A stretch of DNA of 17,896 nucleotides from Candidatus Uhrbacteria bacterium (GTDB lineage: Bacteria; Patescibacteriota; Patescibacteriia; JACPHY01), in assembly GCA_016188355.1 (NCBI GenBank), contig JACPHY010000010.1:1-17896 (forward strand), in the 5' to 3' direction. This document shows, in pieces, positions 4,180-8,717 of the stretch. The notes beneath the pieces are model-generated. The model ran no database searches and was not told the origin of the DNA. It saw only the letters and a program-made list of their open reading frames with translations. Every line of letters starts with the position of its first letter. Within the stretch, counting starts at the first letter, position 1. Position numbers and translations under genes: made by a program.

Positions 4180-5568
4180 TCATGGGGCAAGGAGCGGTAG
4201 TTCGGTGAGTTCCTCTGCGATAGGTTGGAGGTCGGGGAGATAACCGTTCGGGGTGAGTGCGACGCGGATTCGGAGTTTCGCGGTGATGAGGCGCGCTCGC
4301 CATTCGCGGGTGGGTGGGCCGACGTATCCATCTGTCATGATGAGGATTTTTTGGAATCCCTCCTGGAGCGCGTGCTCCCAGATGCAGACGGCATCGGTAC
4401 CGCTGGTGGACGCGCAGGTGCCGGCGGCGAGCTGCGCGGTGGTCATCTCGTGGATTTGCTCACTGAAGGCAAACAGACGCGCGCGACGTTGCTGCACGTA
4501 CGGATGGACGAGTCCAGCAAAGAGGTTCCAGTACGGTCGTGTGCTGCCGCTCACGTCGATGTAGATCGAAGTGATGCCGCGGGCGTCCGTGATCTGTTGC
4601 GCGGGAATGACATTGCGGAAGATGAGCGGCGACCAACCGCCGGCGCTAGCAACCAGTGCGCGGCGATCGCGGAGCGTGGGAATGGGGGCCTCGATGGAGC
4701 GATCCGTGCATGCGCGATGGCGATGGGTTACCGCCCCCTTCACCTGCGCTTCCGCCATGGTGCGGAGCATCCGTCGGAGCACCTGCTGTGCACTCAGGGG
4801 GACGGGCGTGCGTTCGAGGAGGATGTCGCGAATGTCGCCCCCCACACTGCGTCCGCGAATGGGATCGGGTGGCATGGGCCATTTTTCCACAATCGATCGC
4901 ACCATGCCGTTCAGGAGGGGATGATGGGAGGCGGATTCCCCGCGACCTTCCGTATCTTCCGGGGAGTGATCTCCTAGGAGCACGGGCATCCTCGCTTCTT
5001 TTCCGATGCATTCGCGTAGCTGCGGGTCCTCCTGGAACAGCCGATAGACTTCGTCGTAGGTGCCGCTTGCTTCGGAGTAGAGGGTGCGGATCATGTGTTG
5101 CACGGGACGGGGGAGCGTTTTGGGAATCTGTATCTTTTTCGGCCATCCGGGTGGCGGACGGAGGAGCGCGGCGGGGAATTGATCTGCAGCGGAGAATTGG
5201 GTGAGAAAGGACGTGTAGATCGGTTCCGGGAAGAGCCGTGCCAGGATCGCATTAATGATTGCATCGAACACGATATTGTCGACCGGCGTCATGCGCGGGA
5301 AGAGTCGCGTGTGTCCGAGGAGGACATGGTGCAGTTCATGCATGACGAGCATGAAGAGATGCTCATCGGTTTTGCAGTATGCCGCGATGAAGTCCGGATT
5401 CAGGAGGAGCTTCGGCGCGGAAAGGCACTCCACGGCTGCACTGGGCACCGTCCACGATTCCACTACGTCGGTGAGCCGGAGGAAGGTATCGAGGGCGTAG
5501 TGTCCCGCAGGAAACGCCGAGAGTATCCGATGTCGGAGTGCATCGCTCGCGCGGCGATCCGCCATCAT
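4180..5568 (-). CDS. Fusion protein with an N-terminal HExxH zinc-metallopeptidase-like domain and a C-terminal von Willebrand A (VWA) domain. This is the DUF2201_N + DUF2201 architecture, the usual partner of MoxR/CbbQ-type AAA+ ATPases.
   Basis: The N-terminal half contains ...YCKTDEHLFMLVMHELHHVLLGHTRLF..., with HELHH as the HExxH motif. The C-terminal half contains ...ITSIYIDVSGSTRPYW... (a DxSxS MIDAS motif) and later ...STSGTD... and ...ILIMTDGYVG..., the VWA beta-strand motifs. The start MMADRR at 5568 overlaps the TGA of the upstream gene as ATGA, and GGAG lies 9 nt upstream. The 126 codons of the track ORF (4180..5946) upstream of this start are not used. ORF 5095..5934(+) and the ORFs at 4225-5204(+) are shadows. 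Confidence 0.8.
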   Translation of the reverse strand: MMADRRASDALRHRILSAFPAGHYALDTFLRLTDVVESWTVPSAAVECLSAPKLLLNPDFIAAYCKTDEHLFMLVMHELHHVLLGHTRLFPRMTPVDNIVFDAIINAILARLFPEPIYTSFLTQFSAADQFPAALLRPPPGWPKKIQIPKTLPRPVQHMIRTLYSEASGTYDEVYRLFQEDPQLRECIGKEARMPVLLGDHSPEDTEGRGESASHHPLLNGMVRSIVEKWPMPPDPIRGRSVGGDIRDILLERTPVPLSAQQVLRRMLRTMAEAQVKGAVTHRHRACTDRSIEAPIPTLRDRRALVASAGGWSPLIFRNVIPAQQITDARGITSIYIDVSGSTRPYWNLFAGLVHPYVQQRRARLFAFSEQIHEMTTAQLAAGTCASTSGTDAVCIWEHALQEGFQKILIMTDGYVGPPTREWRARLITAKLRIRVALTPNGYLPDLQPIAEELTELPLLAP

Positions 5569-6092
5569 GGCAGGATCTCCGCGAGCGCGACGATGCGCGG
5601 ATCGAAGGTAACGAGCTCGCGGAGCAGGAGCTCTGGCGTCACGTTGGGTGTTTTCGATGCGATGAACAGGCGGTCGGATGTTTTTGCGAGGATTGCGAGG
5701 GTGAGGGGGAGATCGCGGATGCGTCCCCAGCGAAAGGGGCGATTTAGGTTTTCTCGTATGACGGATCCCTGCTCTTGGAATATGATGCATCCCACGAATC
5801 GTTGCGCACAGATAGTGGCGTCGGCAATGGCGCAGAGGGCTTCGGCGTCGTCTTGCGCTGCGGAGACGTGTTTGGCGACCAGACTCCGGAGGCCTCGACA
5901 TACCGTATTCGGATGTCGCGTCATGATGATGTGATTCGCATTGCACGCTTCCTTCAGTGAGACGCGCACGGCGGTACGTCCCCGTACCGCGGCACCCGAT
6001 GCGGTAGTTTTCGAGGGCAGCGGCTTGACGGTGACGGTCGATCTCGACGCGCCGCTCATGTTGTGGGCGAGCGATTGTGTATCGGCGGTCAT
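5565..6092 (-). CDS. Hypothetical 175-aa protein with a Ser/Thr/Ala-rich disordered N-terminus followed by a globular domain of about 120 aa. It is an inserted middle gene of the AAA+/VWA module.
   Basis: The start ATG at 6092..6090 overlaps the TGA of the AAA gene at 6091..6089 as ATGA. Its own TGA at 5567..5565 overlaps the next ATG at 5568..5566, again as ATGA. The sequence is MTADTQSLAHNMSGASRSTVTVKPLPSKTTASGAAVRGRTAVRVSLKEA...CRGLRSLVAKHV...ELLLRELVTFDPRIVALAEILP. I treat the 16 upstream codons in the track ORF (to 6140) as non-coding overlap with the AAA gene. Confidence 0.6.
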   Translation of the reverse strand: MTADTQSLAHNMSGASRSTVTVKPLPSKTTASGAAVRGRTAVRVSLKEACNANHIIMTRHPNTVCRGLRSLVAKHVSAAQDDAEALCAIADATICAQRFVGCIIFQEQGSVIRENLNRPFRWGRIRDLPLTLAILAKTSDRLFIASKTPNVTPELLLRELVTFDPRIVALAEILP

Positions 6093-7714: not shown

Positions 7715-7718
7715 GGAA

Positions 7719-8717
7719 TCACCACAGCGGCGTCGGCGGCGCGGACGGGAATCGTAATTCCAGGGTCGCTCGACGTGCTTCGACCTCCGGAGGCACCTCG
7801 ATCATCGTTGCGCAGTGATGACACGGCTGTTCCGTCTCGCGGCGCTCCCGTCGCCAGACGTCGCGTCGGCAATGGGGACAGGCAGTCACCGCATGGACGA
7901 GTGTATCTCGGAAATGCGAGCGCTTCGCGATGAGTCGCCAGTGGCGGTCGCCGATTACCAGCTGCTCCAAAGTCCGTGGCGCGTCGTTTGCGATTCGTTC
8001 GAATACGGGCATGGGTTGCCACAGCTGCTTCACGGTGAGGCGTTCGGCGATGTGCATGGGAATGGTGAGCGGGCTGCTGCAATTCCCGCACCAGTCGTGG
8101 CGCTCGGTACTCGCTCGTGCGGCGTCGAGGGTGGCGCTGGCGGAGCAGCGCGGGCAGATGGTCCATCCGCCGCACGAGCGATCCTCACGGCGCTCCCAGA
8201 GGAGCCACGGCGTACCATCCGGGTCCACCCCCTTCCCTGAGATGGTGGTCGTGGGCTGCGCAGATGGGCGCCATGGCCGCATGCGAGTTGCCGCGATGAA
8301 TTCCTGAACGAGGCGATCGAGATGCAGTTTGCCGATCTCCGGTCGTGGGAGCGGTGCGCCCTGCCAAGTGGTGGCACGCGTGTCACGATCGGCGATGCGC
8401 ACCGCAACGGAGTCGGGAGTGGGACATGGCCCTGCGGCACTGAGCGCGGTAACGATCGCCGGCGGAATCTCCACGGCATGTCCGCAGTCCGCACATCGTG
8501 TCACGGGATGCAGGAATGTGCAGAAGGCGTGTCTGCAGGCAGGGCACACGGTCTGCGCAGCGAGGCGTTGGTCATTGCACTGGAGGAGCTGCCATGGCAT
8601 ATCCTGCACGCGACATCGCGTGACCACGCGCGGCGTTTGCTCCGGTGGCTCGCCGAACGCATGTAGGTGCGCTTGTAACTGTTCGAGTCGGCAAAAATGA
8701 ACGGAGACGGAGTTCAT
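7719..8717 (-). CDS. Cys-rich protein with three tandem zinc-ribbon-like modules, each CxxC...CxxC. It is the first gene of the four-gene module.
   Basis: Module 1 is VCPACRHAFCTFLHPVTRCADCGHAVEIPP. Module 2 is ICPRCSASATLDAARASTERHDWCGNCSSPLTIPM. Module 3 is ACPHCRRDVWRRERRETEQPCHHCATMIEVPP. I chose the ATG at 8717 (MNSVSVHF...) because AAGAGGAAAG lies about 9 nt upstream. The track ORF starts at a GTG at 8753 with no SD. ORFs 7815..8240(+), 7930..8307(+) and 8030..8494(-) are shadows. Confidence 0.7.
   Translation of the reverse strand: MNSVSVHFCRLEQLQAHLHAFGEPPEQTPRVVTRCRVQDMPWQLLQCNDQRLAAQTVCPACRHAFCTFLHPVTRCADCGHAVEIPPAIVTALSAAGPCPTPDSVAVRIADRDTRATTWQGAPLPRPEIGKLHLDRLVQEFIAATRMRPWRPSAQPTTTISGKGVDPDGTPWLLWERREDRSCGGWTICPRCSASATLDAARASTERHDWCGNCSSPLTIPMHIAERLTVKQLWQPMPVFERIANDAPRTLEQLVIGDRHWRLIAKRSHFRDTLVHAVTACPHCRRDVWRRERRETEQPCHHCATMIEVPPEVEARRATLELRFPSAPPTPLW

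Follow-up and report, generated by a model that had tools for sequence, protein, structure and literature searches.

Gene organization of the locus

We analysed a complete 17,896-bp contig (the window) from a metagenome-assembled genome of Candidatus Uhrbacteria, which belongs to the Patescibacteria or candidate phyla radiation (CPR). Its minus strand carries an operon encoding, from gene 1 to gene 4, a MoxR-type AAA+ ATPase (475 aa, 6089–7516, with a GTG start at 7516), a small protein (175 aa, 5565–6092), a fusion of an HExxH metallopeptidase-like domain, DUF2201_N-like and N-terminal, to a VWA domain (462 aa, 4180–5568; the VWA protein) and a divergent protein resembling S-adenosylmethionine (SAM) synthetase, here called the MetK-like protein, a putative adenosyltransferase (392 aa, 2918–4096, with an ATG start at 4096 and a GGAGG Shine-Dalgarno sequence). 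The conserved unit is these four genes in this fixed order, a self-contained, translationally coupled cassette of about 4.6 kb that has spread both vertically and horizontally. At present such genes are labelled 'AAA family ATPase', 'hypothetical protein' or 'methionine adenosyltransferase domain-containing protein', the first and the last being the NCBI names of the ATPase and the MetK-like protein, respectively.

An initial annotation of the window had instead delimited a module of four consecutive minus-strand open reading frames (ORFs) that began with a triple zinc-ribbon protein (ZnR, 332 aa, 7719–8717) and ended with the VWA gene. These ORFs are present as described, and so are the two ATGA stop/start overlaps reported between them, AAA+/small at 6089–6092 and small/VWA at 5565–5568. 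The lower boundary, however, was misplaced: the conserved unit runs on through the MetK-like gene, the obligate fourth partner that had been omitted, to a hairpin at 2843–2871. The 4-nt gap reported between ZnR and the ATPase gene proved to be an artefact of taking the longest ORF, since it arises only when the ATPase is read from ATG 7714 (541 aa). That start was rejected in favour of GTG 7516, because a GGAGG Shine-Dalgarno sequence (7526–7530) lies 9 nt 5' of the GTG, the NCBI and Logan gene calls both give 475 aa, the N-termini of the homologues begin at the equivalent residue, and a 22-nt hairpin element, GGGGAGCCTCGCTCCCCTCCTC (7671–7692, minus strand), falls within the initial 66 codons of the longest ORF. 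The spacer between ZnR and the operon, in which this element lies, is therefore 202 nt long.

A third ATGA (4180–4183), located on the stop codon of the VWA gene, would extend the MetK-like protein by 29 aa, but it is probably incidental, since ATG 4096 is favoured by its Shine-Dalgarno sequence and by both the NCBI call and the homologues. A 12-bp hairpin, GCGCCCGTTCCA...TGGAACGGGCGC (2843–2871, minus strand), is found 47 nt past the MetK-like stop codon and is kept in a sister Uhrbacteria genome (L086), with one G-C pair exchanged for A-T by compensatory substitution; it is likely to mark the 3' end of the operon transcript.

Conservation and distribution of the four-gene cassette

With one genome scanned for each of 185,579 species, 480 loci were detected, and 80 of them were retrieved. 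The ATPase, VWA and MetK-like genes were colinear wherever the flank allowed, and the order AAA+/small/VWA/MetK-like held in essentially all of these 80 loci, which come from at least nine phyla: besides Patescibacteria, the cassette was found in Verrucomicrobiota, Myxococcota, Alpha-, Beta- and Gammaproteobacteria, Acidobacteriota, Gemmatimonadota, Planctomycetota and Chloroflexota. Inspection of the neighbourhoods gave the same order in two distant members (L003 and L004), and that in the contig carrying P0071 agreed as far as it was visible (VWA and MetK-like genes only). A reciprocal scan of metagenomes, with the MetK-like protein as sole query, returned at least 575 loci; the best 80 were taken, and in all 70 of these with enough upstream DNA the VWA gene was directly upstream of the MetK-like gene.

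The gap between the ATPase and VWA genes was filled by a same-strand ORF in 69 of 69 loci, and in 68 of them the ORF was assigned by profile to a single family. The AAA+/small junction overlaps in 65 and the small/VWA junction in 49 of the 69 loci (mode -4 nt), while the third junction, VWA to MetK-like, has a median gap of 9 nt. Pairwise distance matrices among the four proteins correlate with r = 0.89–0.92. The small gene, which the initial annotation had placed in the module, is thus a true component by its recurrence in 68 of 69 loci, whereas ZnR, placed there as well, has no homologue beside any cassette other than that of the sister Uhrbacteria genome.

No fifth conserved gene recurs among the neighbours of the cassette, the largest neighbour cluster, DUF3293, being present in 8 of about 50 loci. 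Genes of this family (PF11697) adjoin the cassette in 6–8 mostly Burkholderiales loci (flanks of L011, L014, L021, L036, L056, L068 and L069) and could represent lineage synteny or an accessory partner. Homologues of ZnR and of three further window proteins, namely the nucleosidase Pfs, a vault-protein homologue (MVP) and a 418-aa protein (p418), were absent from the 80 retrieved genome loci; Pfs, MVP and p418 are kept only in the sister Uhrbacteria genome and were rejected as components of the cassette. Other CPR genomes do carry the cassette, amid housekeeping genes.

Near-identical cassettes were also noted in human-gut 'cleanbin' assemblies titled Parabacteroides/Bacteroides (L041, L044 and L060) and Duodenibacillus (L051). 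They resemble the Sutterellaceae copy, although the records are labelled Bacteroidales, which suggests mis-binning or recent transfer.

In the literature searched (8 million full texts), which left subscription journals and recent large lists of candidate systems outside the search, no association of MoxR/VWA genes with a SAM synthetase was described. What is new here is a MoxR/VWA system with an unprecedented, obligate partner of the methionine adenosyltransferase (MAT) fold.

The ATPase, the VWA protein and the small protein

The ATPase matched Pfam AAA_5 with 30.8 bits (gathering threshold 22), whereas its score for bpMoxR, 23.6 bits, was under the gathering threshold of 27; a weak PDB match was to the MoxR-like protein 2r44. 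The Walker A (GPHGTAKS, 7367–7390) and Walker B (VFIDE, 7190–7204) motifs, sensor-1 (AAMNP), the arginine finger in ADRF (6989–7000) and sensor-2 (SPRRG) are at least 95% conserved among 62 AAA+ relatives.

The VWA protein belongs to a family with at least 750 matches, the top 120 of which are full-length and about 40% identical. It contains HELHH at residue 77 (5326–5340) and a metal-ion-dependent adhesion site (MIDAS), DVSGS, at residue 338 (4543–4557), followed by TDG (4327–4335). No variation was seen in 81 relatives at His77, Glu78, His81, His86 or the MIDAS residues. The AlphaFold2 model (predicted local distance difference test score, pLDDT, 82.9) confirmed, as far as a prediction can, a C-terminal VWA fold with a complete MIDAS, which matched those of TFIIH p44/Ssl1, NorD, BchD and midasin and resembles NorD and BchD in particular; by profile the domain is of the VWA_CoxE type. 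A PDB profile search with the family gave no significant match, and for the HExxH domain no structural match was found in the PDB, although the output of the fold search was dominated by VWA matches and so says nothing about this domain. The sole match for the N-terminal domain was DUF2201_N (PF13203), which scored 17.0 bits on the window protein, below the gathering threshold of 23.2, but matched 73 of the 81 relatives at E < 0.01 (best 3e-6); one family member is named by NCBI as 'DUF2201 family putative metallopeptidase'. PF09967 matched 2 of the 81 relatives (best 0.0044) and did not match the window protein.

These results bear out the initial annotation in its pairing of a MoxR-type ATPase with an HExxH/VWA fusion and in the conservation expected of the HExxH and MIDAS residues. 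Its 'DUF2201-type' label holds for the architecture, HExxH followed by VWA, but PF13203 remains below threshold in the window protein and PF09967 does not apply.

The small protein consists of a disordered N-terminal tail and an alpha/beta domain, with a conserved folded part of about 140 aa. It has no Pfam match, and no fold match to the alpha/beta domain was found in the PDB. The tail bears the motif LLHN(M)S, seen in the window as HNMS at 6054–6065. Met-Ser comes after the near-invariant LLHN in 49 of 70 tails, and LLHN[S/T/V/I]G is read in the rest.

The MetK-like protein

All three S-AdoMet_synt domains of Pfam (N, M and C) were matched by the MetK-like protein, which is about 29–30% identical to E. 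coli MetK; its score for the equivalog model TIGR01034 was 206.5 bits, below the cutoff of 309.4. An alignment was made of 61 clade members plus the window protein (n = 62) with E. coli MetK, the reference being identical to PDB 7ll3. In it, His14, Asp16, Lys17, Glu42, Asp118, Lys165, Phe230, Asp238, Lys245, Lys265, Lys269 and Asp271 were conserved in at least 55 of the 62 sequences and in the window protein. Glu55 was replaced by Arg in 60 of 62 (GRI at 3935–3943 in the window) and the segment containing Gln98 and Ser99 was deleted in all 62. Pro was found in all 62 in place of Ile302, which we take to be a ligand of the methionine side chain in MetK; in addition, G117D was present in all sequences and Ile102 was changed to Leu in most. 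In the E. coli enzyme, Glu55 and Asp238 bind the amino group of methionine, Gln98 and Lys269 bind its carboxylate, and Ile102 contacts its side chain (PMC1282579, PMC3853416). Since the ATP, metal and triphosphate residues are kept and methionine ligands are changed, the MetK-like enzyme should, to judge from these residues, still cleave ATP and transfer the adenosyl group, whereas binding of free L-methionine in the canonical way is unlikely.

A canonical metK is present in the same locus as the cassette in five cases. It lies immediately 3' of the MetK-like gene in L115 (6718–7800), L062 (10511–11665) and L035 (11589–12464), and within about 7 kb of the cassette in L007/L004 (17724–18866, L007 coordinates) and L073 (12218–12916, minus strand). 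These canonical copies are 42–64% identical to E. coli MetK and have Glu55, Gln98 and Ile302 intact where covered. The MetK-like clade is therefore an extra paralogue, and the canonical metK would seem to be near the cassette more often than chance would give for a single-copy gene. Other genes of methionine and SAM metabolism near cassettes are metG (two loci) and, upstream in both Uhrbacteria genomes, pfs, so that the link of the cassette to such genes is weak but repeated.

Neighbouring genes and other features of the window

The ZnR gene (minus strand) directly precedes the operon. The protein has three CxxC...CxxC units, at residues 58–78 (CPAC/CADC), 188–213 (CPRC/CGNC) and 280–302 (CPHC/CHHC), and the internal repeat was also detected by BLASTP; by its paired CxxC motifs it is classed as a zinc-ribbon repeat protein, predicted to bind metal. 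No Pfam family was matched, and a HMMER search of 1.84 billion representatives returned only ZnR itself, a spurious FN3-repeat protein and a 229-aa protein. The latter is encoded at the corresponding place in the sister genome (7127–7816 of L086), has two ribbon units and is 34% identical to ZnR, compared with 72–82% identity for the operon proteins on its flank, suggesting that ZnR has evolved unusually fast for a gene of conserved position, with a repeat number of three versus two. No further homologue was found in about 160 related loci, and other CPR genomes carry the cassette without ZnR. As an orphan missing from all loci beyond the sister genome, ZnR was rejected as a component of the system and is regarded as a fast-evolving, lineage-specific neighbour.

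An exact second copy of GGGGAGCCTCGCTCCCCTCCTC is located at 8775–8796 (minus strand), just after the nucleosidase gene (0 expected by chance), so that the two copies bracket ZnR. Related hairpins are present at both equivalent places in L086 (about 7060–7082 and 7834–7855). The hairpin lacks a T-run and might act as a CPR-type terminator or stabiliser, or else mark the edge of an inserted cassette.

The gene pfs/mtnN (8802–9482, minus strand), encoding a 5'-methylthioadenosine/S-adenosylhomocysteine (MTA/SAH) nucleosidase, is two genes upstream of the operon in both Uhrbacteria genomes and is not conserved elsewhere. Its product scored above the cutoff of TIGR01704 and just under that of NF004079 (166 bits, cutoff 169), and its position fits a SAM-cycle neighbourhood. 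The next gene (9620–11407, minus strand) encodes a 595-aa homologue, in a CPR bacterium, of the eukaryotic major vault protein, with MVP_shoulder (5e-30), Vault repeats and an SPFH-like domain. It is kept in the sister genome, where the nucleosidase gene again follows it.

Downstream of the operon are the gene for the 418-aa protein (1138–2394, minus strand), which has a weak, below-threshold match to the RelA_SpoT nucleotidyltransferase domain (E 3e-4), and, directly after it, a relA/spoT gene of the full-length type (1–981, minus strand), which is cut by the window end and encodes HD_4, RelA_SpoT and TGS domains. In L002 and L086, relA/spoT is followed by parB and parA.

Between the MetK-like gene and the gene for the 418-aa protein, two blocks of the spacer (2575–2672 and 2710–2783, both minus strand) are about 100% identical to L086, whereas the proteins around them are only 34–82% identical. 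Both blocks contain GTGAATGTTTGAGTT. One, that at 2575–2672, is preceded by a near-consensus promoter, TTGACA-17-TATAGT (2702–2674), and its fold comprises two hairpins (-42.9 kcal/mol, z -5.6), the second of which is a 16-bp terminator with a T-run (2627–2588). A small RNA of about 85 nt may be encoded here; this candidate has no Rfam match, Rfam and tRNA scans of the window having found nothing. A 90-aa ORF at 2391–2663 is probably not a gene.

Possible function of the cassette

In several MoxR/VWA pairs, the VWA/MIDAS subunit engages an enzyme encoded nearby and the ATPase remodels that enzyme. Such pairs and their clients include CbbQ/CbbO and Rubisco, NorQ/NorD and NO reductase, CoxD/CoxE and CO dehydrogenase, and BchI/BchD and BchH. 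The MetK-like enzyme, strictly linked to its MoxR/VWA genes, is the obvious candidate client here, and by this analogy we favour, with a probability of about 0.45, the reading that the cassette encodes a MoxR/VWA remodelling machine controlling a co-encoded, specialised adenosyltransferase. The MetK-like enzyme would be remodelled, matured or gated by the ATPase hexamer, with the VWA/MIDAS protein serving as adaptor. The small protein might serve as a docking, regulatory or sacrificial partner, and the HExxH domain could plausibly bind or cut its exposed LLHN tail. As for the MetK-like enzyme itself, its acceptor for the 5'-deoxyadenosyl group of ATP would be something other than free L-methionine, a likely one being a thioether or another nucleophile without an alpha-ammonium group, and the reaction would yield a specialised SAM-like compound. 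So described, the system looks cytoplasmic, and metabolic or regulatory and tied to methionine/SAM metabolism, rather than dedicated to phage defence.

Several points weigh against this reading. The client role is transferred from other MoxR/VWA systems, and the protein contacts, the proteolysis and the substrate are predictions. To our knowledge none of the analogous pairs (CbbQO, NorQD, CoxDE and BchID) has a peptidase domain, so that the analogy does not account for the HExxH domain. The alignment is more certain around Glu55 than where the Gln98 loop is deleted. The cassette is patchy (480 loci in 185,579 species, about 0.26%), its context varies, and the small subunit diverges fastest (mean pairwise distance 0.72, versus about 0.5 for the other three), features that are also those of a conflict system. 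Moreover, restriction-modification genes adjoin the cassette in the contig carrying P0071, and models for MzaB, Mokosh and PD-Lambda-2 each matched at one neighbour locus.

These last observations, together with the spread of a compact four-gene unit over at least nine phyla and the occurrence of MoxR/VWA dyads in described conflict systems (PMC7159879), would suit an anti-phage or conflict system, in which the AAA+/VWA/peptidase proteins sense infection, the small protein is perhaps a bait or inhibitor, and the MetK-like effector burns ATP (yielding adenosyl-X and triphosphate) or makes a toxic or signalling nucleoside. We consider this unlikely. No PADLOC-DB 2.0 model matched ZnR or the small, VWA and MetK-like proteins, the ATPase giving only a marginal hit to an RtcR-like AAA model (E 0.006), and NCBIfam and PADLOC searches of all proteins gave nothing past the generic domains. 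Residence in defence islands, raised as a test in the initial annotation, was not found either: among the 149 nearest neighbour proteins (about 50 loci, two genes per side, a sample in which a weak enrichment could go unnoticed) no defence, toxin-antitoxin, integrase or restriction-modification family recurs. The cassette is instead located amid housekeeping genes in reduced CPR genomes, is repeatedly adjoined by a canonical metK, and lacks effector-associated, STAND and beta-propeller components. A phage origin was rejected, with 1 relative in 2.9 million viral contigs. The more specific proposal of the initial annotation, a ternary conflict or signalling system in which ZnR is the variable third component specifying input or effector, is very improbable. 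ZnR is directly upstream on the same strand and is hypervariable between the sister genomes (34% identity, 3 versus 2 units), but it is an orphan missing from all other cassettes, including those of other CPR genomes, and between it and the operon there are 202 nt of spacer containing a hairpin, another copy of which stands after the gene that precedes ZnR. In addition, bpMoxR is below threshold and no beta-propeller, VMAP or effector component, the hallmarks of the MoxR-vWA ternary systems, was detected.

Two other explanations concern the MetK-like enzyme. It might act in a pathway like those of ribosomally synthesised and post-translationally modified peptides (RiPPs), adenosylating the methionine of LLHNMS in the small protein, after which the HExxH domain would cleave the tail with the assistance of the ATPase. 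The motif is indeed conserved within a disordered N-terminal tail, a peptidase domain is encoded in the same operon, and loss of the free-amino-acid ligands (E55R and the Gln98 loop) would open the pocket to a peptide-embedded residue. The idea of the tail methionine as acceptor is weakened, however, because it is present in only 49 of 70 tails, LLHN alone being near-invariant; the conserved folded domain of about 140 aa is unlike typical precursor peptides, and neither a transporter nor other RiPP-tailoring genes were found nearby, which makes such a pathway quite improbable. Alternatively, the adjacency could be coincidental, a housekeeping metK beside an ordinary MoxR/VWA chaperone pair, as the annotation as a methionine adenosyltransferase domain protein and the nearby pfs, relA/spoT and parAB might suggest. 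This is hardly credible, since across phyla each of the two is obligately accompanied by the other, the MetK-like protein has about 29% identity to E. coli MetK as against 42–64% for the canonical copies of the same loci, the methionine ligands are replaced and the TIGR01034 cutoff is missed.

The remodelling machine acting on a specialised adenosyltransferase thus remains our preferred reading. Going further, the cassette may represent an unrecognised adenosyl-transfer pathway, in which SAM-synthetase paralogues adenosylate a non-methionine acceptor and are gated or matured by their own MoxR/VWA-metallopeptidase/small-protein machine; this is put forward more tentatively. The family with the bacterial/eukaryotic SAM synthetase fold is considered to have a single function. 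The fold has also been called evolutionarily unique (PMC1282579). New adenosyl-transfer chemistry would be suggested by a clade that spans hundreds of species and combines intact ATP chemistry with an acceptor pocket that has been rebuilt. If the proposal is correct, the clade would make a new SAM-like sulfonium, or an adenosylated cofactor or protein, which would be the first non-SAM chemistry for this fold; MoxR/VWA chaperones would acquire a new class of client, and the poorly understood DUF2201/MoxR pairs would gain a genetically defined client. With the present annotation, metabolic reconstructions, especially of CPR bacteria, may miscount the MetK-like enzyme as MetK.

Comparison with known systems

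The MoxR-vWA ternary systems (Kaur, Burroughs, Iyer and Aravind 2020, PMC7159879) share with the cassette the dyad of a MoxR-like ATPase and a vWA protein, and a metallopeptidase domain is occasionally fused to vWA in them (PMC7159879). The cassette differs from them in lacking beta-propeller, VMAP, iSTAND and effector-associated domains, in its subthreshold bpMoxR score, in hosts that are not multicellular and in the absence of a defence context; a SAM synthetase goes unmentioned in the paper that describes them (PMC7159879). The chelatases BchI/BchD and CobS/CobT likewise combine an AAA+ protein with a VWA protein, but the cassette has neither a BchH/CobN-like subunit nor nearby tetrapyrrole genes, and its ATPase is of the AAA_5 rather than the Mg-chelatase type. 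The DUF2201-type proteins (PF13203 plus PF09967), for which we know of no function, share with the cassette the order HExxH then VWA and the AAA_5 partner, whereas the cassette has a VWA_CoxE domain instead of PF09967 and is defined by its linkage to the small and MetK-like genes.

CbbQ/CbbO, NorQ/NorD and CoxD/CoxE likewise consist of a MoxR (AAA_5) ATPase and a VWA adaptor acting on a co-encoded enzyme. The VWA protein of the cassette has an N-terminal HExxH peptidase-like domain that CbbO and NorD lack, an obligate small protein is added between the ATPase and VWA genes, and the presumed client is a SAM-synthetase paralogue, a kind of client that was unreported for MoxR/VWA pairs in the literature searched. 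With canonical MetK/MAT (TIGR01034; E. coli 1RG9 and 1P7L), this paralogue shares the three-domain fold, His14, the Mg/K and triphosphate ligands and the adenine-stacking Phe230. It is set apart by E55R, loss of the Gln98/Ser99 loop, I302P, G117D and a score below the equivalog cutoff, and, unlike the canonical enzyme with which it coexists, it is always encoded 3' of the AAA+, small and VWA genes.

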